This document shows, in pieces, positions 1,055-58,921 of a DNA stretch of 64,000 nt; positions within the stretch are counted from its first letter, which is position 1, and every line of letters begins with the position of its first letter. Under the pieces are notes generated by a model that was not told where the DNA came from, made no database searches, and was given only the letters and a program-made list of their open reading frames with translations. A program made the position numbers and the translations under genes. This DNA comes from Cyanidioschyzon merolae (Eukaryota), in the NCBI GenBank assembly GCA_000091205.1, contig AP006494.2, one strand, 5' to 3'.

Positions 1055-2987
1055 GGCACACGTACTCGGCAGCGTCGTCGAATGCACAGGCTACTGCTGT
1101 GATGTCATATGGTTGGTGGTTGTTTTCTTTTTGGGGGGGAGCGTGCTCTACCGCAACTGTGGTATGTTTCCCCATGCTGCATCAATGTTGAAGCATTATT
1201 AGGTGTCTAGCTCGAGCCACGCGATGATTATCGTTTGGCGAAGCGGCGGCATCTGCTGAGTGCAATGCACATATCAGCTTTGACGTATCCATTGCAATAT
1301 TACTTTGGAATGTGAACGCATATGCAATTCGAGAAGAACTCGGCCCGGTTTCGCGACGCCTGCAGTGAAATGGCATCCGCAAGCACGTGGGCGGAGGTAT
1401 GCATCGATCCGCGCTCAGCCGTCATTCCTATGCATTGAAAGCCAACACTAGGATCGGGATCACGCAGGCACGTGAACAAGAACCCGATTCAGCCGTACCC
1501 ATTATCGCTTGCCACCGGTTCGTGCGAAGAAGTGCAAGCTACAAGTCGCTTTGCGTCGGTCTGGTAATTTGCCAGCCCAAACGACCACGAAATTCCTGGA
1601 GGAATGACTCCAGGGGCACGCAGCACATCCAGTACCTTGATGAGCGCAGCATCTCAGTTCGTGCATGTTCACGACTCGCAAGGCATGATGGGAAAAGTTC
1701 GGCCAATCGGAAATTTACTCCTAGTCCAGTATCCGTGATCGTTCATATGCTTGCGTCTAAAAGTCATCGATCTAGATGTATTTTCAATGTGTATGTAAAA
1801 TCACTGAGCATCCGCTATCATGATGCATGCTTGAGGCCTCTGCGCCTGCTTTGAGTCTTCGTGCAAAGTCCGGCGGCGTCAGGTTGCCTCATGGTACACA
1901 AACAGAATCCAGTCGGCGAACAATCGTGCGTCCCGCTGCCTGCCGATTATCGGCTCCTCTGCTAAAGCGCACGTCATGCCCAGGGATCAGCTGGGCGACT
2001 CGAGGCATCCGCGACTTTTGTGCAGGCATATCCTTGAGCGGGCGCTTCGTCCACGTCTGCGACTGCTGCTTACCTCGTACCTTGAGAATACCCGCACGTG
2101 TTCGCGAATAACGCTCTCGGGATCGATGCTTGCTTTCGGGGAATCCCCGGGCGGAACGGATTCCGGCGCATACCTGGGCACGACGTGAGCGCAATCGTCT
2201 GTTTTGTCGAGAGCCACAAAGCGAGGAGGATTCTTCTTTCGAACAGAATCGATCACTGGACATGGCAAGTTTAGTGAAAGCTCGACTTGAGCGTACGAGC
2301 ATACCGTCACGGGAACAAGTCGCGTATATTTCTCGTCCATTCAGCGGCGCTAATGACACCGCGCAGTAGTCGCCCTGAAAATGATAGATTCTTGAAGAAT
2401 GCGTGATGTGAGCATACTATATGGAACAAAAGTACGCGATTAGCGACTTGTGCATGTGAATTGGCTAAGGATATCGGTTCATAGTCGAACTCTTCTTCAG
2501 GTACTTTCGAATCATCTTCATTACGGTGACGTAACGGATTCCAGCAGCTAGAGCTGATACGAGTCATCTCGAAAAAAAACCCCCACTGAAAATCTTGAAT
2601 TACCCATGAATACGCATGCTCGTATTGCGGCACGTCGACCCTCGAACCTGAATATCTAACACTGGTTCGCGAGAAATCTCAAGACAGGAACAGAACGTAC
2701 AGACCAGCGTTCCATGTTCATGATCAACGGGTACAAGGAGCGTATCCAGCGACCTTTCCAGTGTTCAGCGAACGTTTGCCCGCACACCAGCTATACGGTA
2801 TTGTCAGTCGCTACGGAGCGTCTGCTCGGAACGGGCCGTGCGACGCCTGCTTCTGCTGCGTCAATGAAAGACCCCGCCCTGGTACGCAGACGCGTCAAGT
2901 CGTGCTTTTTCGGGGTGAACGAGCTGCCCGCGACTTGCGTTTCGAACTGAGTGGATCGGCTTGTCCGGCTTTTCTCATGCGGCTGCG

Positions 2988-5535: not shown

Positions 5536-6789
5536 GACAGCGCTTCTAGCGCTGCTTGATGGAAGCGTTTCAACCCAAGTGTGCGAGCCTGAAAACGAAC
5601 GAACACCGCTCTGCAGCAGATTGTCAAACTGACTATGAACCGCGGACGCTGCGGCATCGGTTTGCCTTTGTGGCCGCGCTCGCCGCCGCCAAGACTTTGT
5701 TGCAACACACGTCGTGTTACCGCTGCGACCCGCTTCGTATTCGAGCGATACTTGGCTTGGGTACGATCATCATCGACCCTGAGCTCTATGTGTTCGTGGA
5801 AATCATGGTCAGAGAAGCGAGTGTTCTGAGTTATATTGAACAGCGGAACGCGACTATCGATCCTCAGTTGCCCATGGATAGTGTTCTCGACGTATACAGA
5901 TGAAGCTCGATCCTTTCTGGGGTGCACAGCGGCACCGTGCCTGTTTCCTGCTCCAGCCGAGAATCTAATCCTCTTTTCCAGGTCAATGACTTTTTTACAT
6001 CGGGTGTCTGCAGCGTCTCACAACCAGGCGCGTACTGAGGCCGAAATGATTCCCTGCAAAGTTCATTTGACATGAATGTATTGGGGGCTCCAGAGGCACG
6101 ACATGTTGCCGGAAGTCGATTTTAGGCGGTGAATTCGAGGTGCGAAACTAGCTTTTGTGCGTTTTTGCTCATGCCATCTCAACATAGCACGTCTGTCATC
6201 TCCGATGGCTACGTCGTCTGATATTTGCTCACCCTGCCGCACACTATGCCCTGCGTTCCGATGTGTTCCGCGCATCTCTCCCGAGCCTGTACCAGCGTGA
6301 ATATAAGCCCATGAAGCGTTTGTGCTGTCCTGAGCACACTGATGGGGATCGATTCCCGCAGTTGTTGTATGCTCTCGTCGGCGGTGTACGAGTACAGCCC
6401 TTGTGCACTGCGGCGCGTCCAGCGCTATGGACTTGTACACAACGACTCGACGAATTCTGCCATATGCGTTGCGAAATCACTAAAGAACCTGGCGAATGCA
6501 TGATTCATGGGTCCGTACAACCGAAACCGGTCGCTCTCCCAGCGCTGTCTCATGTACTCAAGCAAAGAATCGTCGGCCTGAGCCATCTGGATACTCTGGT
6601 GTTCTCCCAATCGAGCGTTTACAGTACATCCAATGCTCGACACGGTACTCAGAGCGTTTAAACGAACCCTGGGGACGTCATCCCTGTTGCTCGTACGCCT
6701 CCTGGCGTCTAAAACGACCGGCGCCTGTTGGTACCGAGCCCTCGAAAAGTTCAGCAGGTTCATTCGCTTTCCCGTTTATCGGATCTGTG

Positions 6790-6845
6790 AAACGATAAAC
6801 GTTTCACGACCGTATCGTGCACACATACACCCATTCGCAGCCGCC
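6790..6845 (-). repeat. Copy D (partial) of the conserved Fanzor-unit 3' element
   Basis: Immediately follows the stop of ORF 6848-7360. gtttcacgaccgtatcgtgcacacatacac...gcagccgcc aligns with ggttccatgacagtatctacgtgcgctttacgtacactgcaccgccgc at 54665-54750. Confidence 0.4.
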
Positions 6846-6847
6846 TT

Positions 6848-7360
6848 TCAGCCTTTTATGAAAGAATGACTGCTATAGGCTTTCAGTTTCTCCTTGCACA
6901 CGTCGAGTCGGAGAGGCTGCAGCAAAAATTTGTATCTCGTCAGCTCTGCAGGTCTCTTCTGCGGCACCGCATATCTGCTGAAATTGATGGCGGCGTTGAC
7001 GTCCCGGTTCACGAACTCCATGCGTTTATTGCGTCTGGTAGATCTCATTAGTGCAATGGGGTCTCGGATTCGTGCCCGACCCCCATGAGCGACTACAGTC
7101 TCGTCAACTTCCCGCCGTGCAACCAGATTTTCTCGCCAATCAGCATTCTTCTCCTTCTTCTTTGACACTTGCGCTTCTTCGCTGGATGTTCGGCAAGCAG
7201 AGGTTTTTTCCTTTGCGTCGAACGCAGACACAGCGGGCTTCCGGGATCCTCTACTTGCATTTCGGTACCTATTCCCTGGATTTTTCCTTCTACATGAACG
7301 CACTCCTATATGCTCTTGATTGAGGACCTTCCCGGATGGAGGTGGACTCGATGCAGACAC
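6848..7360 (-). pseudogene. Fanzor/TnpB-like C-terminal fragment with intact RuvC-III motif NRDVNAAINF and QP-tail
   Basis: RIRDPIALMRSTRRNKRMEFVNRDVNAAINFSRYAVPQKRPAELTRYKFLLQPLRLDV aligns with the 54752-55000 copy (RGLLALISTTNDGKKRMEL / NRDLNAAINIRRCAML...ANFIGQPLKVEL). No upstream RuvC-I lies in the same ORF. Confidence 0.6.
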
Positions 7361-8179
7361 ACGAAATCTGTCCCGGTATCAAGGTGAGTTGAATGCTTCA
7401 GCGATTCGCCCAGTGGAGCAAGCATTCGTATTCTCGACACTAGAAACTCCTTCGATGACGTTGAAACTCGCAGAGCTTACGTAGGAAACAAAAGCAGCTC
7501 TAGTCCTCGACAGATTCAGCAAAAGCTCGAACGCGAGTGGATTGGTAAAATACCGTGTTGTCTAATGGAAGTACGTCGCCAGACGTCAGGGAAAAGTCTT
7601 CTGTGATGCGACATAGTGGTTGGTGCTGGTATATGAGACTTCGGTACAGAGGAAACTGGAGCTGCCGAATGAATCCACTGCAGCTAGGAGAGCTGCTGAT
7701 GTCATCGTTCTCTTCGAATTTGATCGTACATAAAATTGGCTCTTTCACCTCGAGTATCCAGATACGCTCCGACCGTTTCATCCGAAGCAAGTCTCATCGA
7801 CTGAAGAAACAAATCGACGTCGGTCTATTTCATACCGATCGAGACGTTCCAGGAATTCTTTCGTTGCGATACGAGTAAAAGATGGCCGTGATTGAAACTG
7901 AACTCTACGTGCGATGGTGTTCCGGTTTTTTCCGGACCATAGGCACAAGCTGTAGAGAAACAGAGACCCACATGGCGTCTCCTGTTGTCGCTTTTGGTTT
8001 CCGTTAAATTAGATCAACGGGTCATTTTCAAACATTGAACGCAAGCAGTCTCTGGAACTATCGGTTACTGGCGCGGAGCGCAAATACTGCTTCTGTTCAG
8101 TGCTCCTCAACCATCTGCCTACTGTCGTGTGACTGACCTGAACGAGGGATGCAAACTTCGCAGCACTTTTCATGAAGGA

Positions 8180-8275
8180 CTATATATATCCTACAGACGA
8201 TTTATCCACGGTCCATACGGTATACTGCATGGTGATTTCGATCTCCGGATATACACTGCTGCGGAGGAATCAAAC
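8180..8275 (-). repeat. Copy A of the conserved Fanzor-unit 3' element (starts tatatatcctacag on + strand)
   Basis: About 77% ungapped identity over 78 nt to 37664-37741 (tatatatcctacag...ggtata.tgcat.gtgat..cgatctcc.g.tatacactgc). Lies directly 3' of the tail segment FDSVPVSNIK in ORF 8202-8894. Confidence 0.6.
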
Positions 8276-9599
8276 ACATTTGATTTGAAAGAATATAATG
8301 GGCCTTGATGTTCGAAACAGGGACCGAATCGAATACAAGCTTGCAGCGTCTTGGGCGATAGGATCCTCCGAGGGATTCCTTTCCGGTCTTAAAGGTACTG
8401 TCCAGCAAAGCGCAATGGCACGAGATGTTCCTAAGGCAGACCTCATGTTTGAAGCGTCCTTTGCATACGACGTCCATCGTTCCGAGATCAAGAGCAACAC
8501 AATAAGATCCGATGATCTGAAGCGACGCTCGCTCTGGCTGCAACATCTCGTCGATGCTCGCTACCTCTTTGATCTCTTTTGGCAACAGCTCGTCATTCGC
8601 GTCCGTTGTCACGCCAAGAGTTCCTTCCTCCAGAGCCCATATATCTGGGTCAGTGTGCTGCGGGTGCAACGCCCACGAGGCGAAATTCATGATGCCCTCG
8701 ACATTGAACAATATACAGTTTAGGATTTTCAGGCGTGTTTGAACCTTTTTGACACCTGTGCTGGAGACGCTTCGACCGGCAACGTCGCACTGCGGAGCGT
8801 CAAGAATTTTCCGCGAAGCGCATATGCAAATCTCTGGTCCAACGGTCAGGCCGTGCTGCATCTTCTGTCTCGAACATGAGTTGTGTTCAAGCACGAAAGT
8901 TTGATGGATAAATTCCGTAAGAATCTGGACAGCTTGCAGAGCTGCGTCCAGAGCTCCTGCGGATATTTGCTGAGCGATCTACGTCGAGGCGAGGAATGCC
9001 AGATGAGCCTCCCTCGAGTACGAAGCTGCTCGATCATTCCTAGCGTTCTGCATATCGCCTCTTGCGAGATTCTCCCGTTGGTTTGTTTCAATCGAGAATC
9101 CTTGACAACGTTTGAAGACTGATATTCGCCCCACAGAAATTTTTCTATCCGGCCCCTCGTCGTCTTCTTTTCGCGAGGATGATTCCCTTCTTTGCTGAGC
9201 GGTACCTTCGCCTTGCCCGTTACTTTTGCGGGACGGAAAGGGTTCGGGTGCGATGCACCAGGTACGTTTTCCCAGTGACTCAGACGAACTGGATGGACGA
9301 TGGGAATCAAGTCCGCGTTTCCCATCTATGCATCTATCTACTATTCCGCGTGCATCTTTTCGTCGCCTTGCCCGACGCGCGCATGTGCATGAACCCAAAC
9401 GCACCATTCAGTGCTGTCCAACGCCCGAGCGGAGCAGCAAACAGTAGTTCTGGGCTGGTGAGGGGAGAGCGCGCGGCGTCGCAGGGAACGATTCGTCGAA
9501 TGACGTCATCAATGATTCGAACGACTCGAATGTGCGTTGTTGAGCGTAATCATGACGTTTGACAGCAGAGAAGACGCCTTCGACTCGACTGAAACGGAG

Positions 9600-9690
9600 A
9601 CCATAGGCTAGCATGAAGGGTAGCTCAGCTCTACTCTGAGTTACGTGCAGCATGCCCTTGTTCAGGTGATGGAAAGCGACGTTGTCGAAC
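9600..9690 (-). repeat. Copy E (diverged) of the conserved Fanzor-unit 3' element
   Basis: gcatgaaggg...ttacgtgcagcatgcccttgttcaggtgatggaaagcgac resembles catgaaggac...tactgcatggtgatttcgatctcc of copy A. Follows the tail-like segment MFDNVAFHHLNKG. Confidence 0.3.
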
Positions 9691-12600
9691 ATTGAGACGG
9701 AGGAATCCTCTTCGGATACAATACGAAGTGTCCTTTGTCGAAGGATGATGAGCTGGTGAGTGGCCCTGTCGGGTTCCGGATTTTTGTCCGCGACCGTACG
9801 GCTGAGGTGCCGCAGGAGCCCCCACATCGAAATGCCCGCTTGACTCTTTCGTGCGAACAGCGGTTTTTCTTACCTTGAGTGCCCATACGCGGCTCTCGCA
9901 CTCGTTCCGGAGGCAGTTTCATCGAACTTGACGAGCACCCGCACCAAGTGTCATCAGCATTTGCGTTCCTCCAGGAAACCGATATTGCGTTGTGCACCGC
10001 ATACAGGTCTCGAATAGAGGCCCGATTTTTCTTCGTAAATGCGTTTCTCTTCGACATGGCTCGTACCAACGGTATGAAAAATTCACATCTGGTACATGCT
10101 TCGTATTTCTTCGACAGCGTACAGAGTGGAATGGGTGGACCACCATCCAGTCCTGTAGATAGCGTTTGAAACGTTCTGTTCAGCGTACACGATATTCTGG
10201 ATAAGAACTGGAACACTGGTGGTTTATCCGCCTGCTGACATCTGAATGACTCGACTATAGAAATAAAATCGTTTTTCGCAATCTACCTATGACAGTATAA
10301 AGTCTGTCCACGAGACCGCTCTCCGGTTCACAGCGTACGTACCTTTTGAGGCATACCTCGGGAAAATGCACGAAAACAAAACAGGGCGTATTGTTAGTTG
10401 CACCAGAATTTACGATTCTCTGTGTAAATCTTGCAGGTGTGCTCGTGTCACGGGAACTCCCCAACAAGGGAATGCTCGTTCCGAATGTCGCCCAGACTCG
10501 CTGCCAGAGCCCAAGCGTGCATGGCATGAGATTCGGAACGAATGTTGGTGTGGAGGCTCGCCGTTTTCCACGGTGGCCGCAGCTGGTGGCCAGTCTTTTT
10601 TTGGGGTGCTGCCTTTCGCACTCGCGATATACGTGTTGCGTTTCTGCACATTTTGGCGCTTAGGAACGCAAGGGCGCTCACGGAAGCGAGTTCCCGCGCA
10701 AGGGACTGGTGCCTGAACACACGGGTTGCGTCCGCGTAAATCGATGCTGACGCTCTTGCCTAACTTACAACTATATCAGAATGAAACAGAACCGGTCTAT
10801 GGACTGTGTCGCACATGCAAACCTTGCGGCCTGTTTCCATTTCCAATACCACCAGCCTGTATGAGATTGTTATACATCTGCTGCTTTTCCTGTCTCTGTT
10901 ATCTCACGCTTTGCATACTGGGGTTTAGTTTAGCTCGAGCTCCGTTGTCAGGTGTCGAAAGATATTGGCTGTTGCGTTCAATGCCCGATTTCCTTGCAAC
11001 CGACTGTTGTGGACATATTTGCTTCACAGGCGGAAGTTGCGATCTGGGCGTCACTCGCATTTTTACGCTGCTCTGCAGGTAGGCACGGTGCATCCCTCGC
11101 AGCGGTGACACCTGCGAGCGGTTTGATGTTCCCGTGTATCCACCACATATCCCACTGCTCCGAATGCTACTCTGTGGTGCGTGGACGCTTCCATCATCGC
11201 TCTGTGCAAGCGCTTGACGGGTACAGAAGGCTCGCGTCTACGCCCAGTTCCGTTTCTGCGCTCGATGCCGTACCCTGCGAGCACGGGCTTCTTCCAGACG
11301 ATTTCGTCGACGAGTACGCTGCCGTCCGAACACGAGGGCGCGAGCGCTTCCATTCCGTAGAGGATTTGTCGATTGTGATCGTGCGCTTGATGAATCAAGT
11401 ACCGGAAAGAAAATCCATGCTAGCGATGATGCCGCAAACGACGGATCCGTCTAAGCTAGCATCGTGCCAGTCAGTGACGCACGCTTCACAGGAAGCGATC
11501 GCTGCGATGATTCAGGTACGAGTCCATGACCTCTTCCATGCAACATGAAGAGTCGGAAACCGCCAGGAGCATATCCCGTCAGATATTTATCATACTGCTG
11601 TCGAATCCCGCTTGATCGATGACCACAAAGAGATGAGAATTCATATTTCGAACAGAATCTGCAATTTGAAGCAGCAAGTTCAGTGAACCTTCGGCATAAA
11701 CAAGTGAAGATACTGTCAAGCGGCGACGGCCAGTTTCTTCCTCGTCAATCGAGCCGCGTGAATTACTGTGGCAACGAGTTGCCTCGAAACCGGCGGATCG
11801 AAAAGATATACAATACGGCATTTCAGCATGCGACATGTAAGGAAAGCAAGCGACTGGAAGCTCATTGGTAAGCATTGGCTGGCGATCTCTGGAACAATAC
11901 GAACTATGTTTCGAGTGCATCGGGAATCACGTTGATTCCGATGAAGTCATGAATTCCATCGGGAAAGCGTCCTCGGATCCACCCAGAATACTCAGCAGAA
12001 CATCCTAAAACTACCAGTGAATACGTAAGCCCATACTGCTGGACTTGGAAAGCAGAGTCTGTGCAATGAAACCTACTTCCGAATAAAATCCATGAACCGA
12101 GCGAGCAGTTCAGAATTGGATCTGACTCTGGCACGGATGTAGCACGTCAGACGTATCGAAGTAGTCTTTGCCCCCGTAACCCTTTTTTGCGGCTTTTTTC
12201 CGAGTATCCGCATAAAACCTGAGGGCGTGCTGCCGGTGCTGTAGTGCGCAAGCTGTTCCAACGATAAAAGGTTTTCGGCTACGGCAACGCCGTCTACTTT
12301 CCGTGGCACCAAGCGCTCGGCACTGTCACCCAATAGGCTCCGGGTCTTCGAACGCGCACTCGCAGCGAGACGAGCGGCTTTTCCCGCCAGGTGCTTCACT
12401 ATTCTCGGTGTTATGCGGGTAATGCACTCGACGGGCCTGGTCGAAACACATCTGGGACTCTATTGATGAGGACGGTCTTGTTTCTTAGAGGCCAGGCTGT
12501 GCGAACTTGGAGTCACGCATCTCAAAGCAGGGTCCTGAACTGGTGGAATCTCCGCATGCCAACCGACGGAAATCCAACCCTAACCACGGACGCCTGTGTG

Positions 12601-14194: not shown

Positions 14195-16530
14195 GAATCG
14201 TGACTGTAAATAGTTTGTGAAACGTGCTGGCGTATCTTTTCCCAAAACTAAGACAAAAGAACGAGGCAGTAGTCCTCTATGAAGCTAGCTTTCTCAGAGG
14301 CAACTGTCCGTAAAAATGCCAAAGCGTTTCACAGAATAGCTGGACTTTGGCGAAGGCTGCGACGCGAGTGCCGGCCATTCGCCTGGTACTGCCCTGGTGC
14401 GTATGCCGGAGGAACCGGTCTCCTTGACCGCAACTTTGAAACTGGGGTACGTGTGACCAAGACAGAGTGTTTCCGGCTAGAGTCGCGTTTATAAACGAAT
14501 GATTGCGTCCGTTGGAGCGTTTTAGTGCGTGTAGCTTCCCAAATCTGCTTGAAAGTACTAGGGCTCGGTTGCAGGTCACGTGGCGCAGAGCACCGGAAAC
14601 TTCAAATGTTCACGTCCAGCACACAGAGATCATTGATTTTGCAAGGCGTGACGCAAGATACGCAGCGTTCAGGGTTTGGAATGAAAACTGACGAAGTTTT
14701 ATACGGGTGTTTAAGAACGGTGAAAGCGTCGAAACAGGCGCGAGTTCGGAGCACGAGACTGCCTGGAACTTGAAGCGCTTCCTTCACTCGACGTGGGAGG
14801 AGGACTGCGGGGTCTCTGTGCAGAGACCTTTTCTCGTTTTACCTGTATTGGTAGTCTTTGAGCTACTGCGCTTTTAATGCGAGCGCGTTTTTGCCTTGAT
14901 GCAATGGGAGCAACGTAGTGCGGCTCTGGAGGAGCCTTCTGTTATCGTGTCCGAAACGATCGTTTTTTAACACACACATATCTACATGGAACGTGTTTCC
15001 GGATTGTTGCATTTCCTACCCTAGTAACAGAAATCATCGGACCTTTCTGCAGAGGCCTTTTCTCATCTTCTTTGTACGAGTGCTTGATCACTGAACACCT
15101 ATCCAGTTTGAGCGCGATACCCGATTGGCGTAAAGTTCCGGAACCTGTTACCACTTCCGAGCAAAAATAAATGCAGGGGTTCGCGGCTCACGCGCTCTCT
15201 TTAGGGTTCCGCTACGCAACTGCCATGCTTGCGACTAGACTTTATTGGACGGTACTTCGGCTTCAAGTACCGGGGCAACGCTTGCAAATTCGAGCTGCAC
15301 GGAGGCAAAACTCCTATGGTTGCGATGAAACTTTATTCGATGAAACGTCGGCATCGAGTGCCAGGATGCTGTCTGCATCCTCAAGTTGCTGGCACACATT
15401 TTGCACGTTCGAATATGAAACCCCGAGGTACGAACCAAACTAGGCGCCGACGCGAGGAGTTCTCAACGGAAAGAGCGGGCTGGGGTACTGCTCAAGTCTA
15501 TATTGTGCAGTAGCTGCTGTGCCACGATTACCATGAGCAATACCACAACCGTGGCTGGCACTGGGAAGGATGCAAACTCGGAACGCCTGCCCGGCACTCG
15601 GTGGGCGCCTATCGCGGCCTCGCACTCTAGCCGATGTAGGAACAATAGAGTCACCAGTTCGTTCCGGGCGTCCTCGAGAGCGCATCGCAACATGCTAGCC
15701 ACATGAGATTTGTGGGGAAGATGCGACATTCCGGGTGAGCCTGGCTGTGCAAGCGCGCTTTTACTCGCCTGGAACGAAGCGCGATGCTTGCCCTGCCAAG
15801 TAAACCCTTGGTGTATTTCCGGACCACCTTAGCCACGAATACTACGTCATGTGGATTTTGCGTTTCAGGCTGGGTATCTCTCGGGCTCGCAACAAGCGAC
15901 CCAAACGCAGTCAGTCTGCCGAATTCTCTGCTCACCGGCTCATGAGCGGAAACCGCACGTCCTTTTGGATTATGAGGAATCGACGCTCGCTGCTGCAGCG
16001 AGCCTGAAGCATCCATATTTCCGTATCTTCAAAATAAAGTTCGCCGCTTGTTTTTTTCTACGACAAGCGGAACCGGAATCGATGGGTGCTTAGGTCCCAG
16101 CGTCGCAGCACATCAGCAGCAGCACCGAACGCTCTGTGATCGTCCACGTCCATAATATGTTCCCAAGTTGGATGCTATTCGGCCCGTACATTGTGCCGGA
16201 TTCCATCATGATCCATCAACGCTGTATGTAACCAAAGCGTGCACCACAATTCCTGTTCGAGCGCTAGTTCGTACCAGATAGTCTAGACTGGTCGACCTGC
16301 TCCGAGCTCGATCCACAAACACGCCGTCTGCGACACCCCTTGCAAATAGCGCACCCAGATGGAGCAGCTTCGCGATACCCCGTCAAAGCGCCAACTCCAC
16401 CGCCATCACGAATGAAAACGCATCCACGCCCGCCTGCAAGTTCTAATCTTCGAAACTGTTGAACATTAATGCATGTTCTGAAAGACGCTGTGTGAGTTCG
16501 CTGTAGCAGTGAGATGTTTATATCGCTCAC

Positions 16531-16732
16531 CAGAACGTTTCCTGTGATCATGCATCCCAGAATGTACCATGAAGACTGGCATTCGGCAGAGCGTCCATCA
16601 TGTTGTACCCTACCTACAAGGTTCCATGACTCCGACATGCTCCCCGAAATACCAAGAGACTGCCGCTTGCGCTCAGCAGAACGTTTCCTGTGATCATGCA
16701 CCCCAGAATGTACCACGAATACTGGCATTCGT
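16531..16732 (+). repeat. 56-bp direct repeat (2 copies, ~93% identical, 145 bp apart) in the divergent DDX6/VPS13 intergenic region
   Basis: cagaacgtttcctgtgatcatgca[tc]cccagaatgtacca[tc]gaa[gt]actggcattcg occurs at 16531-16586 and 16676-16732. Confidence 0.7.
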
Positions 16733-16950
16733 GAACACTGAGCTGCATTGTCGCGCTTCCGCCAACGGTCGATGCGTACGAACGATACTGACGCGCGCAG
16801 CGCCGCCTCGGCGATGCCAACGATGCGCGCTGTTCTGGGCGGCGCGCGCCACCGGCGATCGCCACTCGTAACCAGATACGGCATACACGAACGCGACGAT
16901 TGAGGTGTGTTGGCTCAGAGGTGAGGCATACCACCGGGTTATAACGTTTG

Positions 16951-19280
16951 ATGCTGGCTCACTTTGTAGCCGAGCTTCTATCTGGAACGCTGGGTCAGTA
17001 TGTAAAGATCGATGAACGCCAAATCTCTGTGGGTATATGGTCCGGTCAGCTGGAGCTTCACGAGCTCCAGCTGGTACCTGAAGCTGTACAGGTGCTCTTC
17101 GAACGGGCTTGTGGGAGCGCTCCCTTCCATGTCCGTTCTGGTTATATTGGTCGAGTATGCGTTGAAGTGCCTTGGAAAACCCTGAGTTGGTCGCAACCCC
17201 TGCGCATTCAAATTGAAGACGTGTGCGTTCAGCTTGCGGCGCTACCGCCGGATTCCTGCTCGACCGAAGCAGCTACTCGGAGCCAACGGATGCAGTTGGC
17301 AGAGCTAGCAACAGACGCATCCTTGCGGGAAGCGCAGCTCCGAGCTTGGCTCATGGTATTGCGCGAGGCAGCTTCAGAGGCTGAGAACGAAATAGCCGCT
17401 AGGTTAGCCTCGGCTGCGCGAGCGCTCGCGGTTGATCCGAAATCGAATAACACCAACATCTCCGGTTGGCGGAAAAGACTCCTTCGTCAAGTCGTTGCAA
17501 ACATGCAGGTGCAAGTTGGGAATATATGGGTTATTTTCGGTATGGACGCGTCTGAGAGCGGCTCGTGCACCTCGCGAGGCGTGCAGCGTTCTGCAACCGG
17601 TGACGCCGACAACCGCTGCACGAACGGCAGCGGTGCCTCTGCGGCAGCGGCCAGCGAGGACCCAGCGCGTTCACGATTGGGAACGGTGCTGGAACCCAGA
17701 GAGGTGGATGCAGGGACTCGGGGGGTGAACGCACCAGCACCAGAGTCGAAACAATCGAACGCTGCCGCAGAGACGGACGCACCATTTTCCGTACAGTGTA
17801 ACGAATGTGCACCAGAAATTACCCATGAGGCATCGGAAGACTCGTTCACGAACGTCCTGGATATCGAAGCCAAGGCGGGAAGCACGCCAATAGGCGGACA
17901 ACGCTCTGAAAACATCCATGTTGACAGAACAGACGGCAAGAGCGTCCGTGGTGCCGCGCGAAGACCAGACCAGCGTAGCGACGAGCTGCTGGAGCTTGCC
18001 AGCGCGCTTCTCGATGTAGAATACTCGCCAGACGCTACGACGAGAGCGGTGACTCCCGAAGCGCACAGTTCTAGCACTGAACAGGGACGGTGCGATGCCT
18101 TGCATCCTGTAGCGCGGAACCTGTCTTACGCGGTACCTCCGGAGCCGGACGCTCGTCCAGACGACTTCTTGGACGCGTTCTCAGCTGTCGCTCAGGATGC
18201 GCGAACAACACCGGCAAGTTGCCGAGCAGCTGCCGGCGCCCAGGCGGTGCACCCGCACCAGTCCCAAGAACATATCATCGCACTGCACCTGTACCTCAAA
18301 GCATTCGAAATAGCTCCGATCGTAGATGCGTCGGGAGCCCCAGACACGTCGACCGTAGACTCGGACGTTCTCGCGAAACGCGTTGCATTTTCTGGTCTTA
18401 TGCTGTTGGCTGCGTGTGGTCTGAACGAGCTGAATCGGCCGCTCTTGAGTCACGAACCGCCGACGTCATCGCAACTCTCTGACGTCTGGGGCCTCTTCGA
18501 ACAGGTTCGGACGCAGTCGCAATCGGCGGAAGCGTCTGCAATGCTGTCGCTGGTTCTGGCGCCCCTGGAGATAACCATGCACTTGCGTCTCACTGGCGGG
18601 TTGCTCTCGCTCACCAATAGCGATCCCAGATCGGTATCGCAGCTGAACATCCACATTTCCGCCGTCAAGTGGCATCTGGAGCGCGAGCTCCTTGAGCAGC
18701 TTAGCCAAGTGATCCACCGGTGGACTCGCTGCGCCCCCCTGAACAGATCCCGAGGAGCATCGAGCCCTCGTACTCGCTGGTACGATACCCTCGAAGCAAT
18801 TCGACCCGGTTTTTGGCTCCGTCAGCGATCATCTAAGATGAGAAGGCCCGAAATCGTCCGTCGACGAAGAAAAGAACGCGAACAGTACGTCACCACTCGG
18901 TATCAGTCGCTCCTGAATCGCCTTCTGAGTCCTTCAGATCCACTATGGGCACACATCGAGCGCAAAGAGACCAACCCGGAGCTGTTGACGCTCCTCGAGC
19001 ACAAACTCAATCTCGAAACGATTCTATTTTACCGCCATCTGGCTGATCTGCAGGTGCTATGGCGACTGCGCAGCGCATGGCCTGCGAGCACCGCCCCGGC
19101 GGCGGCGGCGTATCCGGGAGCGCCCCCCGATACGAGCACGCACCCGATGCGTGATCGCCGCGGAGAGGCGCTCACCCAGGTGACGTGTCCCGTTGACTCG
19201 ACACGCATGCTGGGCGACGCGCTGCATCACGTACCAGCTGCGATCGCTGCTGCGGATGCGCGCGCACAAGGCACGCGCAA

Positions 19281-19316
<36 letters not shown>

Positions 19317-30628: not shown

Positions 30629-30674
<46 letters not shown>

Positions 30675-31241: not shown

Positions 31242-31292
<51 letters not shown>

Positions 31293-36858: not shown

Positions 36859-37654
36859 CCGAGCGCCACGCTGAGGCGAAGCGGTGCAGACGCGAAGCAC
36901 GACCCTGCCCCTAGGCGCACCGTGGAGCGGATCGCGGGGCGCCGCCGCTACGATGCGCCAGTTTCGCGTGCACCTGTTCTGCGCTCCTCATTAAGAGGTT
37001 TCGAAACATCCAGCGGATTGTCTGTGTTTCCAGGTCCACGAGAAGCCACCTGTGATAGACAACGCTGCCCGGTAGACGAGCAAACGACGGCATCCGTGAG
37101 GATGATAGCGCAACGTATCTACTCCGTCTGGATACTGCAACCTTACTCGGCTGAAGAATTCACTCGCGGTGCCATGCAACTATCGTCGCCTGGAGCAGAG
37201 CAGCTATCTGAAAAATCGTCCTCGCTTTCAGATCCTGATACCCAGCATCGACTGACCAGTGCTACTCGTTTAGCAGCATCGAATATCAATGAGTTGACCT
37301 CGGGGGTGTCGAGCTCACGGCGGGTATCCATCGCAGCGCCAGGCATGCCACCGCATGCCCCATCTGCTGGCAGGACATCTTTCCGCTGTTTTGAGACAGT
37401 TCCCCAGTGTTTTCAGGCCCAGACGGAAAAACTGGTGCGTAACAGAGACGCCTGTGGTGGCTATTATCGTCGCTTTTGCTCTTGGTGCGGTGATCAAAGA
37501 CCTGCTTTTGCACCATCGAGCGCAAGCAGTCTTCGAGAATCCCAGAGTATGGCGCGCGGGGCACATGTATTGCTTTGTTTTGGTGCTCCCGAACCATCAG
37601 AGTATCGTGGTATGAGTGACTTGAGTGTCGAACGCAGTGCTCCTTGCACTGTTC

Positions 37655-37760
37655 AGTAAAGCATATATATCCTACAGGCAGTTCGTCTTCGATCTAGATG
37701 GTATATTGCATCGTGATGGCGATCTCCTGCTATACACTGCAAAGAAGCATTCAATTCCAC
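37655..37760 (-). repeat. Copy B of the conserved Fanzor-unit 3' element (solo)
   Basis: tatatatcctacaggcagttcgtcttcgatctagatggtatattgcatcgtgatggcgatctcctgctatacactgc is ~77% identical to copy A. It directly follows the stop of the degenerate tail ORF 37751-37945. Confidence 0.6.
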
Positions 37761-45733: not shown

Positions 45734-47808
45734 AGCAATACCAGAAACAAACTTGCAACCCCGTTACTGTACGCGGAGAAACTGTGACCAAGTCGTTGAG
45801 GCGTGCGGGCCTTGTCTAGAACCGGTACCTACTTAGTGCACATGTGTCCGCGTAATTGCTGAACGAGTCCCGTTCCACCCAGAACACAGGGTACTCCAGA
45901 CGCTCGGGATTCGGGATGCATACTTATGTATCGAGATCGACTGCACCAGGATACCAGCTTTCATGTGTTCGATTGTCGGACTCCTTCCAGTGGAAAAACA
46001 ACTGAAATGCACATTCCTCCTGTACTGGCTATCTCGTAAAGCCATTCTCCTTCGGACGTGAATGCAACCTTCACAAGTGCAGACGGATTACACGTGGAGG
46101 AGTACATCGTGGAATTTCTGCGATAGCTCATCCTTTATATTTCTGTTCATTTTTCTCGCAGATATCCAACGAAAGGAATGCATCCCACAATGACAGGAAA
46201 AGTTGCGGGCAGACCTCATGCTGTCACAGGTAGCTGGCGAAGAACGACTGTAATAGTCCAAGACAGTCATTCTGCGGACAGCAAGTGAATGACACAGTCT
46301 TCTGGGGGATCATGTCTCGAACATCATGCATACAGAACAGATCTTCTCAAATTATATCTACATGACGGTCTCTTCGTCAATCACTTCAACTCCATACAAT
46401 AGCTAAAAATTACGGCCAAAGAAGGTACCTGATATGAGGTTTTCGCGCTACTAATACGAGCGCTGAGAACGGGACACATCTGGGTAAAAAAGGAACGATG
46501 CTATGGGAGAGCGTCGCGCTTTGAACAACATACTTTCGATTTAGCACTGGAACACGAACGCTCTTTACAGGAAACCCGAGTCTTCGTCTCACTCGGTACA
46601 GCTTTTTATGGAGAAATTGGCAGATCTGTCTGCGGGTGCGCAATCAGAGGCAAACCGCTGTTCGTAGAGAATCGGCAAGGGTACATCCTCACAACACCCG
46701 TCCTAGCGATAATCTAACCGACTGAGCGCCCACAGACAATCAAGCGGAGGGGATCCTTGAACACACCATGCTTCGTAGAAGCCCTGCGCGTGGCTTCTCT
46801 TCTCACATTCTTCGGTCATGCTTGTGGACGATGTCGTTTTCCATCACTCAAAACCGGTCGAAGAGAATGCTGTTGAGATTGGTGCAGAGCTGCAGCTCAT
46901 GCCTGCGTATTCTACCGAGTTGGACCGTGTCAATGCGTCCGCTCTGCTGTCGAACGGCATTCCTACGCTAACGAATCCTTAGACGGATCGTTGGTAGCCA
47001 TGTCGCTGTTCTGAAACAGCTATTCTCTGACTTTACCAGCGCTCGACAGCTCCGCTGGTTTAATGCTCGTGCGTTGGAGCGAGTGGAAAAGCGTACCTTC
47101 GCCCGTGGCCGTTCTCGCAACGGAGACGGTGACGAAAAGCATTTGGAAAATAGTAGAAGCATTCATAGATAAGGCGGGTATCCGTCCAGCGTTCACGCAG
47201 GGCGCATGAATCCCGACGAAGATGTACGGATACGGAGTAGGGCAACAACATCAATGCCGTTCCTCTTGGTGAAGCTGAAGGCGAAGGGGCTGGTCATCGC
47301 GAGCAAGTTCGAATCATTTGAACAAGTTCGCGAAGAGCAATGACGGAGCGCGTCCAAGACTTGTGTTCTCCAGTAAGGGTACGGGACGCATTTTTCGCGG
47401 ACGATGAAAACCGAAGGATTATCGATATATGTGCACTTCATAAAGCCTATGGCTTACTCGTGCAGAGAGACTTATTTTCATCCGATCAAGCTAGTTGGAG
47501 AAAAAACAGTCCGAGGTTATCGAGGGCCCTGGGTTCATGGCTTCACGGAGTTCGCTGTACCTCCAAATCTAGAAGAGAGAAGAATAGGGAGCTGTCGCTG
47601 AAAAATCCCCGAAAGGCTGGAGCTGATTCCACTAGGCAAAATACCAAACTTTATTAGGTACGTCCGAGTTAGCGGACCCTCTTGATTCCACTCTGACACA
47701 GGCGTAAGCATTGACTATAGCTAAGCTTCTTGGCACGGCGCCGTGAGGTAGCCCCCAGCGGTCTCGCAGACCTGGACGAGGAGTGCGACGATTCAGCGTC
47801 CGCCTTAT

Positions 47809-54692: not shown

Positions 54693-54750
54693 GACAGTAT
54701 CTACGTGCGCTTTACGTACACTGCACCGCCGCGGACACCATCAACGCCGT
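54665..54750 (-). repeat. Copy C of the conserved Fanzor-unit 3' element; overlaps the eIF5B start codon and 5' region
   Basis: ctctatatccggttccatgacagtatctacgtgcgctttacgtacactgcaccgccgcggacaccatcaa shares the blocks tatatcc, ggt.cat, gtat.tgc and tacactgc with copies A and B. It lies directly 3' of the RuvC-III ORF (stop at 54752). Confidence 0.5.
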
Positions 54751-55724
54751 TCTAGGTCGAGCGACGCCAACCGTGCACAGTAGTGGCGAGAAAGCCGTCC
54801 CAGACGGGGCGTCGCCAACCGACGTGCAGACGCCCCCCAGTATTTTTGGACCGGCCACCTACGGCTGCTTCCAACTTCTTCTCATATAGTTCCACTTTGA
54901 GAGGTTGTCCAATAAAGTTCGCTCTTGGCAAGTACGGAGGTCTGTTCTCCAGCATCGCACATCTCCTTATATTGATAGCGGCGTTTAAGTCACGGTTCAC
55001 AACTCCATCCGTTTCTTGCCATCATTAGTTGTGCTAATCAATGCGAGTAGTCCACGAACTTTCGCCCTCCTTTCCATTTGCTCCTCCGTCAGCGGTCCGT
55101 ACTTTTTTATATCCTCAGGGCTCCTCTGGCACTTTTCCATCTCCACTCCCTGAAGTGTACGACCCAGCTCATGGTGTGTATAGGACGTTCGGAACTCATC
55201 TACAGGTATCGTAACGAAACGCCGTGCACACTCTTTGTACGTTCTTGTCGTTGGAGCTGGCGTTGTTCCTTTTTGGGTCTTCCAGCGCCCTGCTCCATAA
55301 GCCACTACGAGCCTCTGATTTTCATCCTCCTTGAGGGCACTCAACTGATTGAAAAAATTCGCGAACGCGCGCTGCCTCCCACCGTGTAGATTCATTCGCA
55401 GACGAGCCCACCGGGGCTTTGTATACTCCTCCCACAGAGCATCCCAATGCGCAACACGAACTTCCATGAATTTCCGAAAAACTTCAAAGTCCGCTCCGCG
55501 GCTCGTCACCTCGCTCATAGCTTCCAGGTGATCCTTCATTCCTGAATTCCAAGTCTCGATTTTCTTCCTCGCATTCATTATACCAGATTCTCGATAGCAT
55601 CTCGCTCTCGAGAACCTCAAAAGACGCATGTCTTTCTGACGTACGTTACCATCAGTACCATCTTCCGCAAGCTTGGGTATTGCGATGGTGATGATATTCG
55701 TGTTCCCAGGGTCCGCGCCAACGA

Positions 55725-56013
55725 CAAAGTCGTCATCGTGCACTTTCTGCATCGCAGGATCCGCCTCCTTCTTTTCTTCGTGCTTCACCGCGCCAACGAC
55801 AAGGTCGTCATCCTCCACCTCCTGAATCGCAGGTTCGGCCTCATTCTCATCTTCATGGTTCGCCGCGCCAACGACAAGGTCGTTATCCTCCACCTCCTGC
55901 GTCGCAGGACCCGCCTCCTTCTCATCTTCATCCTTCGTCACGTCAACGACAAAGTCGTTATCCTCCACCTCCTGCGTCGCAAGATCCGCCTCCTTCTCAT
56001 CTTCATGGTTCGC
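55725..56013 (-). repeat. 78-bp tandem repeat (~3.7 copies) inside the Fanzor-like ORF, encoding acidic 26-aa repeats ([26 protein letters not shown])
   Basis: Each repeat ends in DD[FL]VVG[AD], i.e. a reiteration of the segment immediately N-terminal to the RuvC-I motif. It shows on the + strand as ORF 55738-56259 with repeated KVVILHLL. Confidence 0.8.
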
Positions 56014-56149
56014 CGAGGGCGGAACTGGCCGATCTTTCTTCAACCGCCGATAGTGTACACACAAGGCTACTCCATCGATTTCGATCATCCCAGTGAACAA
56101 CTTTTGCTTGTTCACTCTCAGACGTTTGAAATTGGAGACGTTCTTCAAG

Positions 56150-56260
56150 TACGTCTCCCGGTTTTCGCCGGTGAAGTTCTCCCTGCTGACACTGAACTCC
56201 GGACTGATGTCCCTCATGATGCCGTAGAGGACGCCGGAGTCGATAGTCACAAAACGTGAC
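56150..56260 (-). repeat. Internal copy of the unit tail plus 3' element at the junction of two head-to-tail Fanzor-like units
   Basis: + strand tcccggttttcgccggtgaagttctccctgctgacactgaactccgg aligns with copy C (tatccggttccatgacagtatctacgtgcgctttacgtacactgcaccgccgcgg). The adjacent coding [13 protein letters not shown] aligns with FDSVPVSNIKAHY next to copy A. Confidence 0.4.
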
Positions 56261-56345
56261 TTGATGTTGCACATTGGAACCACGTCGAAGCGCTTCCCCA
56301 TTAGGAAAGCCTTCCGTCTCTCCCACTCTTCATTTTTTTTCTCAC

Positions 56346-57148
56346 TCACCTTCGTTTCTGCCTTGCGTTCGAGCTCTCGGTCCAGAAACACGAAATATCG
56401 CAGGATGAGGCGATAGTATCTTTCCTTATCTTTTTCAACGCTGATATCTTGTCTGTTGGATACGCCAGCCCCAGTACCGCACGATGCTCTTTTATAGCCG
56501 CACGGATCGCAGAAGCTGCATCCGTGTTCTCGTTTGGCGCCTTCTTGTCGACAAATTCGACCTCATCTTCATGCTTGCGATCGCTCGTGATGCCGTTGAT
56601 CATCGCCCATTTTCCATTGCGAGAGATGTCCGGAGACAACGCAAACACGGCGCGTACCATGAAACGTTCGAAGTTCTCTGTCAAATGGTTCTTCAGGTTC
56701 GTGGGGTACTTCATCGCCCCGTACGTGTAAATATCCCGGTCACCCTTGTATCGAGTACCATTGAAGCTGTAAAGGGGATATTTTTCGTGGAGGGCGCGCA
56801 CCCGCTCATTTTCCCTCCGCACTTCCCCTGTGCCGAGCATCAGCTGACGAATAAAGGTTTGTCGAAAAACTTGTCTGGAATCTCGACCGTTTCCATGTTC
56901 GCGACGTCTTCGTACATCTCCCTTGCTAAATGCATCAGTCCTGACGACGCCTTTATAATATTCTTGGAGTATGACGCAACACGTTTTTCGATAGCGTCTC
57001 GCAACTTTTCCCTGTACGGATCCTTGATATGTCCAAGAAGAAAGGTTTTCACCACCACCTCGTCGCACAGTTGTCTCTCGTGCCGCCTTCGACGTAGGAG
57101 CTCCGCCTTTCGGTCCTTCTTCTCTTCCTTTTCTTCTGGACTCGGCAC
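56346..57148 (-). pseudogene. Upstream partial Fanzor-like unit (degenerate RuvC-III-like ENTDAASAIRAAI and tail AYPTDKISALKKIRKD), split into two overlapping ORFs
   Basis: ORFs 56840-57148 and 56346-57068 on the minus strand run straight into the 54997-56391 ORF. Weak similarity to NRDLNAAINIRR / YLPRANFIGQPLKVELYEKK. Confidence 0.3.
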
Positions 57149-57189
57149 TATTTTTTTCTGGCAGCCGGCGAACCTGGGCCTCCAGGATC

Positions 57190-57400
57190 GTGCAATTGCT
57201 TTTTCATAGCGTTCCTTTTTTCGTTTTTTTATTTTTGTATTTCTTGAACGCTCTTTAAACCCTTCTGTTATATACTGCGAAAAAACATTTGACTAGACTT
57301 GTTAAAAGTTTGAAACAAAAACGAACTGAAAACTATATTTTTGTTCGACTCCAACGCGAATACAACTTTTACAGCTGAACAACACACCAGAGATCAGGAT
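57190..57400. other. AT-rich island (~35% GC) in otherwise GC-rich DNA, at the 5' boundary of the Fanzor-like array
   Basis: ttttttcgtttttttatttttgtatttcttgaacgctctttaaaccc...gaaacaaaaacgaactgaaaactatatttttgttcg. Composition departs sharply from the flanks. Confidence 0.6.
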
Positions 57401-58921
57401 CGCGTTTCCCTTCAGCGGCGGCACGCGCGTCGTGTCGTATGCCTGCCTGATCTCCCAGGAACGCTCACTTAGCGCACTGCGTGCACCGCGCGAGACGCCT
57501 CACCGATCGATGAAGGACACGTGTCCGACACCCCGCCTTGGCACGTGCGTGTTCGCATCGCGCTGGAGCGAAAATCAGGTGTCGTAGCTCGGAAACTCAC
57601 GTAGAGTAATCTCTTGCTATAGGCTCTGTCGCTGGTGCGCGTCGCGGTGCCGCCCTTGACATACAAGGTAATATTGGGGCCTGGCACGATACCTCGCGAT
57701 GATTCCAGCTGGCACGCTCCGCCATGATCGATCATCTGGAGCACGGCGAGGCGCCCGGGCGAACGCAGGCGCAACCCAGCAAGAGGAAGACGTCATGGTA
57801 GAGCATTGTTGAATCTAACGAAGAATCCCCGAGTGTCGGATGGTTACCAAGTGCTCAGGACCGCGAGTGTGATTCCTAATGGTGTAGGATTTTGGAATCT
57901 AACCTCTGATCCCCAATGATGTGATGGTTATCGGCATCCGGGAAGCAAGCCTACATGGCGCACCGAATCCTCCCAGTCCTCTTTACCGTTATCCAAGCAT
58001 TGATTCGGGGATAGCGGTCCGTCCACACGATCCTCCGTTCCAGCGACAGCATGGCGTCGCAGTGTCGCTGCGGATTCCCAGGCCGAACGTTGGCGAACGC
58101 AGCGGCTGGTCCGAGACTGCGATTCGCCTCTTGTAGTGAACACTCTCGAACTGGGCCAACCGAGCCCTACGAACGGATACGTTGATTCGCCAGCGCACGA
58201 CGGCGTCAAGGCGCTCGCACGCTCCATGACACGCGCTTTGTCCATGGACTGTATGTACGGACAAAATTGTACCCGCAGGTTCAGCACCGCGCAGTCCGAC
58301 TGTCGATTCCAGTAGGGATGCTGCACCAGGTTCTCCGTCTGCGAGCAGTGATTCGCATGCGAACAATAGACACACTGCTCTGGTCGAAGGTTGGGCGCAG
58401 TAGCAGGCGAATGGCGTGCGGCTGTGTATCGATTCCGCGCGGAGCGCTGCTGCAGGAACATTTGCCGGGTTCAGCGCGCTGGTCAGTACTCTATGCAAAG
58501 TTTTAGATGCTGTGCCTGCAGGAAGCAACTTGGCACTTTGTAGCCGACCGCAACGTTCAAGCTATTTTTCATCCTTGCAGAGCAGCAGAAACTGAGGCTT
58601 GATCGCAGCGATCAAGCCCCAGTTTCGCCATGTTCGGTTGGTAGGAATGCATCGCTTGCGCGGACGGAAGCTGAGATCTGCGATCCTTTTCCCATCGCCT
58701 TCTTCTTTGCATGGTACCCTCGGTGTGTCCTGCGCAGCAGTGACACTCGGTGGAGGTCAAGTGCCCAAATGTATCCGCAATACTTTCTCTACCAACGGCC
58801 GTTCTCTGGCACATGAGCGCATGTTTCACTGCACGGTACGTGCCCTGGACGGGTAGAGAAGGTTTCCCTACATGCTTTACTCCGTTTCCGCGCTCGGTGC
58901 TGTACCCCAGGATCACAAGCT

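Follow-up and report, generated by a model that had tools for sequence, protein, structure and literature searches.

Dead copies of a DDE_3 and Fanzor1 transposon family, not a tandem array, in the nuclear genome of Cyanidioschyzon merolae

Fanzor1 and transposase remnants in the window

The DNA analyzed here, referred to throughout as the window, is a stretch of 64,000 nucleotides from contig AP006494.2 (GenBank assembly GCA_000091205.1), nuclear DNA of the red alga Cyanidioschyzon merolae 10D. Its GMPPB is identical to C. merolae 10D BAM80751 and its eIF5B to BAM80756, its G+C content is ~50-62% per 2-kb window, and it contains long open reading frames (ORFs) without introns. Two loci on the minus strand, here called locus 1 and locus 2, hold remnants of genes for Fanzor/TnpB-type RuvC nucleases, which an original prediction made from the sequence alone had read as head-to-tail arrays of ~1.4 kb units. 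The best explanation of the whole, in which we have considerable confidence, is that both loci consist of dead copies of one DNA transposon family that combines a DDE_3 transposase with Fanzor1, that locus 1 is a nest, or alternatively a row of adjacent insertions, of such copies and not an array, and that locus 2 is a single copy of the type known as CMe-1A (Table 1).

The comparison set consisted of metagenome loci fetched as relatives, which carry "L" numbers, the family proteins being given "P" numbers. Two hidden Markov models (HMMs) were built, a Fanzor family HMM of 687 positions and a DDE transposase family HMM of 297 positions.

Table 1. Positions of Fanzor1- and DDE_3-related features in the window
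Feature	Position	Strand	Basis
Element 1, 5' part: decayed DDE_3 (Tc1/IS630-like) transposase gene	9411..10309	-	DDE HMM, Pfam, self-blastn
Element 1: N-terminal half of a highly diverged Fanzor1 pseudogene (~residues 29-335 of P0044)	8272..9254	-	tblastn, HMM
Element 2: ~1.48 kb internally deleted derivative	6785..8260 (ends +/-10 bp)	-	blastn, tblastn, HMM
Element 3: C-terminal RuvC half of an old Fanzor1 pseudogene (P0040 residues 421-676)	6013..6784	-	HMM, tblastn
Locus 2: single CMe-1A-type Fanzor1 element, 2,967 bp (2.97 kb)	54743..57709	-	Family HMM, blastn vs metagenome loci
75-bp x 4 tandem repeat in the locus 2 Fanzor gene	55713..56015	-	TRF, self-blastn
Solo remnant: 5' end and first ~100 codons of a DDE_3 element	37384..37760	-	Self-blastn, DDE HMM, tblastn
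Third locus: DDE_3 remnant (46207-46979), then Fanzor1 fragment (47287-47445)	46207..47445	+	HMM, tblastn

The nuclease gene is Fanzor1

Joining the four minus-strand reading-frame segments of locus 2 gave a protein of ~700-800 aa, and a database search with this protein returned 50 relatives, nearly all from Joint Genome Institute (JGI) metagenomes, whose sole annotation was Pfam DUF8286. Neither the translated fragments of the window nor the frameshift-corrected locus 2 protein had a significant match in Pfam, which is almost blind to this family; P0049 alone was matched, to Cas12f1-like_TNB (E = 6.7e-5). Because of this near blindness, homology was established by comparing a family profile with the sequences in the PDB and by a fold search. 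A profile made from 11 family members matched SpuFz1, the Fanzor1 of Spizellomyces punctatus (8GKH), with an E value of 1.3e-8 (36.8 bits), in an alignment that spans profile positions 288-634 (347 positions) and superimposes the RuvC-I D, the DE(F/Y)xT motif, and the RuvC-III RD. When an AlphaFold (AF2) model of the intact relative P0044 was compared with the PDB by Foldseek, ranks 1-7 were all Fanzor1 structures (SpuFz, GtFz, and PpFz; E values of 1.5e-8 to 7e-6, probability 1.00), and rank 8 had E = 0.85. The P0044 model aligns to the SpuFz1 fold, a REC-like helical lobe and a RuvC domain with an inserted TNB domain, with TM-scores of 0.50/0.58. Since the family profile matches SpuFz1 and the modeled fold matches Fanzor1 alone, we assign the window sequences to the Fanzor/TnpB-type RuvC nuclease genes, and this part of the original prediction was right.

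The RuvC residues D...E...D, in the motifs DPG, DE(F/Y)xT(S/T), and NRD, are kept in intact relatives as well as in the locus 2 copy. The motifs first noticed in the window proved to be real in part, namely NRDVNAAINF in locus 1 and GADPG, VDEF, and NRDLNAAINI in locus 2. The exception is AGIDPH, which had been proposed as RuvC-I and is an out-of-frame reading of a stretch homologous to IPVDEFRT.

A C4 zinc finger (CxxC...CxxC between RuvC-II and RuvC-III) was looked for in the intact family members, and no CxxC pair was found. Their zinc-ribbon region instead reads DEFRTTYTHHE.GC ... RGLLWC.ST in P0040, P0044, P0049, and P0001, with one Cys on each side. Because intact ORFs also lack CxxC, we regard its loss as a trait of the whole clade and not as a sign of decay, contrary to the initial view that lost zinc-finger cysteines marked degeneration. 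Degeneration as such was correctly perceived: there is no intact Fanzor ORF in the window, locus 2 requires three frame changes to be read through, and in locus 1 the pieces are broken by stops, frameshifts, and large deletions. All copies in the window are thus classed as decaying pseudogenes, with nothing predicted to be functional now.

Family architecture and the associated transposase

At least 20 of the fetched metagenome loci carry an intact ORF of ~295 aa that encodes a DDE_3 transposase and has the same orientation as the Fanzor1 HMM match, which begins ~120-530 bp downstream of it; in the majority of these loci a single unbroken HMM match spans Fanzor1. The transposase ORF follows the pattern MYPVDRR..SLRKTA.LLQVSHSTV.RW... 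and combines a DDE_3-type transposase with an N-terminal helix-turn-helix, as expected for the Tc1/mariner-IS630 group. A short terminal inverted repeat (TIR) together with a TA duplication is a hallmark of Tc1/mariner elements, and young relatives at L006/7/8 and at two further pairs of loci (L025/26 and L035/36) end in TA/TACTC...GAGTA/TA, that is, in a short TIR with a TA duplication; L006-8 and both pairs lie in different flanks. Because its young copies have these ends, we place the family in the Tc1/mariner type, its full form being a DDE_3 transposase gene followed by Fanzor1 on the same strand. No TIR or TA is recognizable in the window copies or at CMe-1A ends, and CMe-1A appears to descend from the composite on the strength of protein homology and a shared 3' end. 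DDE_3 is the only transposase found with the family; neither Y1 nor RepHel was seen, with no search aimed at them beyond the fetched loci.

Three of the related loci, all from one metagenome (L006:440-4055, L007:851-4493, and L008:752-4340), carry 99%-identical [DDE_3][Fanzor1] elements of 3.64 kb with intact ORFs. This transposon is apparently active in its host. The contigs L005 and L006 overlap (L005:3515-3897 corresponds to L006:36-417), and a second, different intact composite lies head-to-tail just upstream.

While the family was active, the DDE transposase would have cut and pasted the element at TA sites. Fanzor1, with a guide RNA from the conserved 3' end that would overlap the C-terminal codons and extend to the terminal hairpin, would have cut target sites that lacked a copy, and repair would then have restored the element, by analogy with bacterial TnpB.

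Absence of a ~1.4 kb periodicity

We found no trace of the proposed ~1.4 kb unit at either the DNA or the protein level. A sensitive self-blastn of the whole window produced no match between any parts of 5930-10216 and, in locus 2, only a 75-bp repeat. The repeat search yielded only three families, all short (21-25 nt) and with two copies each that lie 76, 1587, and 2337 apart, an all-vs-all BLASTP of stop-to-stop pieces gave no pair within locus 1, and a 7-mer scan of both loci at offsets of 1375-1500 detected no enrichment (z of -1.3 to +1.9). The 75-bp repeat was also all that Tandem Repeats Finder (TRF) reported; its longest period was 500, and larger periods were covered by the self-BLAST and the k-mer offset scan. 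Self-alignment of both loci was the comparison on which the original prediction had staked its array, and the ~1.4 kb periodicity is missing from it.

The noncoding 3' element that was thought to recur in six sites fared no better. Among the 15 pairwise local alignments of these sites, 14 did not rise above chance, and the single pair that did was 8180-8275 against 37655-37945 (score 46 vs a null of 10.2 +/- 1.8); the three locus 1 sites scored at the null mean against one another. The sites at ~6790 and ~8260 (8180-8275) correspond to the 3' and 5' ends of the single element 2, while the site at 9600-9690 falls inside the upstream transposase remnant. A spacing of 1.4 kb was apparent because two of the landmarks are the ends of one element of ~1.48 kb. 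According to the HMM, the pieces of locus 1 are different parts of the gene and not repeats of one unit. Nor is 37655-37945 a solo remnant with the same tail and element, as had been supposed: the sequence there belongs to the 5' end of another DDE transposase element and includes no Fanzor.

Locus 1: a probable old composite in pieces

In locus 1 the remnants of a transposase gene and of two Fanzor1 halves follow each other on one strand, with element 2 between the halves. The transposase gene of element 1 is recognized by the DDE HMM at 9728 to 9486 (positions 204-284, E = 2.7e-12) and by a weak Pfam DDE_3 match of the piece 9869 to 9411 (E = 0.023), and by self-blastn 10076-10309 shares 66% identity with 46207-46444, which is the 5' part of another DDE remnant. 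Downstream of it, tblastn places residues 29-328 of P0044 at 9254 to 8292 (E = 7e-12), and positions 80-296 of the Fanzor HMM match at 8939 to 8292 (E = 1.4e-8). The alignment of this N-terminal half stops at ...VSNIKAHYILSNQMCL, equivalent to P0040 residue 314, at ~8271.

Element 3, which is probably the continuation of element 1, matches Fanzor HMM positions 430-527 at 6769 to 6473 (E = 1e-18) and positions 532-568 at 6459 to 6349. Its catalytic motifs are destroyed, with VDEF changed to ISVL and NRD to SHL; the RuvC-I region is absent, and the reading frame is broken by at least one frameshift. The NRD of element 2 is the sole catalytic motif that survives in locus 1.

Element 2: an internally deleted derivative

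Element 2 consists, in order, of a DDE_3 transposase pseudogene (~8231 to 7385), a K/E-rich linker, the two ends of a Fanzor gene fused to each other, and a 3' terminal hairpin (6807-6787, -11.3 kcal/mol). The fusion joins the first ~70 Fanzor codons (...VDETVV...) to the last ~60-90 (...RMEFVNRDVNAAINF...), the latter with the RuvC-III-like NRDVNAAINF at 7009-6980 (-). Matches of tblastn and of the DDE HMM extend over 8176 to 7385. The transposase pieces of the window alone stay below Pfam significance; the copy of the 1.48 kb unit at L024, 67% identical to window element 2 in DNA over 1.38 kb, matches PF13358 (DDE_3) with E = 7.7e-10 and 39.2 bits against a cut-off of 28.6.

Contiguous matches to element 2 occur at unrelated loci, at L024:2065-3407 and in L040 with 67-68% identity over 1.34-1.38 kb, at L079:8279-9282 with 70%, and partially in L051/58, L072, and L023. 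Because the same deletion junction recurs at several unrelated loci, we take the 1.48 kb derivative to be a mobile repeat family of its own. Having retained its transposase gene along with the two Fanzor gene ends, it would itself have been mobilized, and this make-up fits a need for the 3' end in cis, if only circumstantially.

The tail of element 2 (7105 to 6890) is 82% identical at the nucleotide level to locus 2, and self-blastn detects no DNA similarity between it and the neighboring old C-terminal half (6772 to 6013). Because the tail thus resembles locus 2 and not its neighbor, we consider a local tandem duplication in locus 1 excluded. When the surroundings of element 2 and of its relatives were searched for TIRs, the pairs that turned up were no better than chance and did not agree from one copy to the next. 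A Tc1-like end of the form CAGTG...CACTG was considered for element 2 and dropped, its support being 5 nt in one copy.

Locus 2: a single CMe-1A-type copy

Locus 2 matches positions 4-684 of the family HMM a single time, through successive pieces that run from 57127 down to 54848; the extra small matches are due to an acidic repeat. It is for this reason that we interpret it as a single full-length copy and not, as had been thought, as one fuller and one partial unit. The Fanzor gene runs from 57148 to 54752 over four reading-frame segments separated by frameshifts at ~56870, ~56430, and ~55002. Its motifs on the minus strand are GADPG (RuvC-I) at 55719-55705, VDEF at 55203-55192, and NRDLNAAINI at ~54997-54968 (NRD at 54997-54989). 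By tblastn its protein shares 70-79% aa identity with P0001, and by blastn its DNA (57709 to 54743) is 70-87% identical to dozens of copies among the metagenome loci. On the 3' side, 12 blastn matches stop sharply at 54743. The 5' ends of copies group into sub-families, so that the 5' boundary of locus 2 is 57709 by the definition of one sub-family or ~57450-57480 by that of the core common to all. We classify locus 2 as one CMe-1A-type copy with Fanzor1 only, inactivated by its three frameshifts.

Just upstream of RuvC-I, the Fanzor gene of locus 2 contains the 75-bp tandem repeat (TRF: period 75, 4.0 copies, 85% matches), which translates to an acidic repeat of 25 aa. The copy number of this repeat varies among related copies, in which HMM positions 378-403 are present 1-4 times. 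The repeat thus acts as a minisatellite within the element.

The ATG of eIF5B (54692) lies ~50 bp downstream of the CMe-1A 3' end, and gene and element share a strand. The promoter or 5' untranslated region of the essential eIF5B would thus be expected in the stretch that the element fills, and this layout is kept at 99.7% in an independent environmental assembly.

The 3' end and a putative guide RNA

CMe-1A copies end uniformly in ...GAAC(A)GGCG, with TT(T/C)G next to it and unrelated flanking sequence beyond, and the 3' end as a whole reads ...GAACGGCG(TT), which is not the CTRR of Helitrons. In most of 36 copies the last 34 nt fold into a terminal hairpin of 8-11 bp (median z of -2.0). There are two sequence variants of it, UUCGA../..UCGAA and UUUUUC/GAAAGG, and the hairpin forms in both. 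In locus 2 the stop codon (54754-54752) lies inside the terminal hairpin, after which the sequence reads GGCG/TT. Whole 3' ends of 130 nt fold modestly better than shuffled sequences (mean z of -1.6).

TnpB and characterized Fanzors have a guide RNA that overlaps the ORF and is specified by the 3' end of their elements (PMC10530073; 8GKH). By analogy, the 3' end of CMe-1A is a likely candidate for a guide-RNA scaffold.

Alternative explanations

For locus 1 itself we lean toward nesting, that is, toward an old [DDE_3][Fanzor1] composite (~10309 to ~6013 on the minus strand) split by the co-oriented element 2. The insertion would have interrupted the old copy at Fanzor residue ~314/421, with ~320 bp of it lost. 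The two old halves lie on the same strand in the correct order, are similarly diverged, and break at the consecutive protein coordinates 314/421, precisely where element 2 begins and ends; with the gap, they add up to ~3.2 kb, a bit shorter than the intact composite of 3.64 kb at L006-L008. A clearly less probable arrangement is that three (or four) elements inserted independently and side by side in a transposon-tolerant gap, each truncated separately and none nested. It keeps some probability because codons are missing at the junction of the halves and no TIR or target-site duplication (TSD) is recognizable there. Family debris is also common in this part of the genome (11883 to 11066, and at 37.4, 46.2-47.4, and 58.6-59.5 kb), whereas the shared strand, order, divergence, break point, and summed length of the halves all speak against independent insertions.

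A real head-to-tail array of a ~1.4 kb Fanzor unit, amplified by self-targeting in the manner of IS200/IS605 or by a rolling-circle or satellite-like process, we hold to be very improbable. It would account for the succession of co-stranded family pieces in locus 1, for the element's hairpin end without obvious TIRs, and for a 3' fragment that precedes a full copy in the same orientation in L023/24/40, L071/72, and L005/L006. Against it stand the lack of self-similarity at any ~1.4 kb offset, the identity of the pieces as different gene parts, and the closer resemblance of 7105 to 6890 to locus 2 than to its own neighbor. The IS200/IS605 or rolling-circle mechanism that had been suggested is also contradicted by the DDE_3 partner, the TA duplications of young relatives, and a 3' end other than CTRR. 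An orientation rule for neighboring family members was considered and rejected, as related loci have five co-oriented cases (L024, L072 twice, L079, and L005/L006) and five opposed ones (L004, L032, L051, L052, and L056). Because of this tally, the co-orientation in locus 1 does not reflect a rule of the family. Misassembly of repeated copies by collapse, expansion, or chimerism has next to no probability, even though many copies of ~80% identity are a classic cause of it (PMC3627910). Four independent metagenome contigs span locus 1 (L088 is collinear at 99.3% over 13.5 kb and L089-91 at 99.3-99.5%, with 4 gaps each) and one spans locus 2 (L085, 99.7% over 8.49 kb with 1 gap), and the same broken ORFs recur in them at both loci, so an early worry about the assembly was not borne out. 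Finally, the end-to-end packing on one strand in locus 1, L005/L006, L024, L072, and L079 might stem from guided insertion or homing, in which Fanzor1 with its 3'-end RNA would make breaks beside or within related copies that are repaired by copying or by new insertions, and deleted elements with a transposase and a Fanzor 3' end would be selected as carriers of the guide RNA; we regard this as a long shot.

Several observations weigh against the account of dead DDE_3 and Fanzor1 copies, with a nest in locus 1, that we prefer. The AF2 model of P0044 has low confidence (pLDDT of 59, pTM of 0.49). Only weak similarity backs the transposase of element 1 over its N-terminal two thirds (10309 to 9730). 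The old Fanzor halves share only ~24% identity with intact relatives (~24% with P0040 for each half), so that their assignment to a single copy is indirect, and ~106 codons (~320 bp) of Fanzor including RuvC-I are missing between them. No TSD or clear TIR is recognizable around element 2, and no mariner-like TIR or TA at the ends of CMe-1A-type copies, locus 2 included. As for the guide RNA, the RNAalifold consensus of the 3' end is weak (-6.7 kcal/mol), a hand-specified three-helix model shows covariation not above shuffles (85.0% vs 84.2% paired, 59/500), and Rfam has no match for the 3' end. Such results would be expected if a few masters gave rise to most copies and these are decaying neutrally.

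Relation to known systems

CMe-1A was described as the one Fanzor1 family of C. merolae, with ~150 copies that are ~80% identical to a consensus of ~3 kb and that have no TIRs (Bao and Jurka 2013, Mob DNA 4:12, PMC3627910). Its TSDs were given as undetermined and its superfamily as unknown, and its 5' 635 bp are common to TE-N2_CMe (PMC3627910). Compared with this published description, locus 2 agrees in its length of ~3 kb, in carrying Fanzor1 only, in the many copies of ~80% identity, in the lack of TIR and TSD, and in the mosaic 5' ends. The locus 1 copies and many intact relatives differ from it in that they carry an upstream DDE_3 transposase gene. The elements of the window thus belong to, or are closely related to, the family described in 2013 and are in this sense already known. 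What appears to be added here is the tie of this family to a Tc1/mariner-type DDE_3 transposase, together with a mobilized derivative made of the transposase and the Fanzor ends.

Mariner/Tc1 elements with Fanzor1 are known elsewhere, namely PGv-1 and PUl-1 (Bao and Jurka 2013, PMC3627910), and Fanzor1c has been associated with Mariner/Tc1 (Jiang et al. 2023, PMC10530073). The family resembles these in having the transposase 5' and Fanzor1 3' on one strand, in the short TIR and TA of L006-8, L025/26, and L035/36, and in the existence of internally deleted and Fanzor-only derivatives. It differs in that the window copies are too decayed for TIR and TA to be seen, the transposase being placed by its Pfam DDE_3 domain (IS630/Tc1-like). 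With SpuFz1 (8GKH) the family shares the aligned RuvC D, DE(F/Y)..T, and RD, the overall fold as modeled for P0044, and a gene that reaches as far as the element's 3' end, which in SpuFz1 encodes the guide (omega) RNA. The differences lie in a sequence identity of ~14%, in the replacement of the zinc-ribbon CxxC (TYTHHE..C ... LLWC), and in the pseudogene state of the window copies. Likeness to IS200/IS605 TnpB elements and to Helitron arrays consists of a TnpB-type gene on the 3' side, a 3' terminal hairpin, and the absence of long TIRs in CMe-1A copies; unlike them, the family has a DDE_3 partner, TA duplications in young relatives, an end that is not CTRR, and no periodic array.

The array thus dissolves into ordinary nested or adjacent transposon debris, and by itself this finding matters little. 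More relevant is that the C. merolae Fanzor1 family appears to be descended from a Tc1/mariner-type [DDE_3][Fanzor1] composite, which persists in intact, apparently active form in other organisms known from metagenomes. The existence of a mobilized derivative with the transposase gene and both Fanzor gene ends speaks, though only circumstantially, for a role in cis of the 3' region, the putative source of the guide RNA.

Other remnants and repeats in the window

Further debris of the family is found outside of loci 1 and 2. In the solo remnant, 37404-37740 is 66% identical to 7922-8259 of element 2, and DDE HMM positions 13-107 match at 37668 to 37384; the Fanzor HMM has no match at 37384-37760. 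In the third locus the DDE_3 remnant matches DDE HMM positions 93-180 (E = 3e-10) and 209-247 (E = 5.5e-7), and the Fanzor1 fragment corresponds to P0040 residues 322-373 (tblastn, E = 1.1e-5).

A diverged repeat family is represented on the minus strand at 11066-11883 and 58572-59482. The two copies are 64-70% identical to each other and to many metagenome loci, where they occur in varied positions and orientations, and DDE HMM matches to them are weak (positions 57-106 with E = 5e-4; positions 135-230 with E = 0.016). We take this repeat for a probable Tc1-like remnant of greater divergence, to which a small piece near 1990-2416 (~1890-2420, minus strand) is related.

The remaining repeats of the window lie in other surroundings. 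A single ORF of 6,021 codons (16948-35013, plus strand) contains several trinucleotide-repeat tracts that match one another, at 22117-22151, 30612-30687, 31241-31299, 25502-25529, and 26793-26840. A unit of ~86 bp occurs in about three copies of 93% identity at 35144-35342, and a 62-bp duplicate with 94% identity is found at 16524/16670 (within 16524-16731), its copies 146 bp apart; both are unrelated to the Fanzor family.

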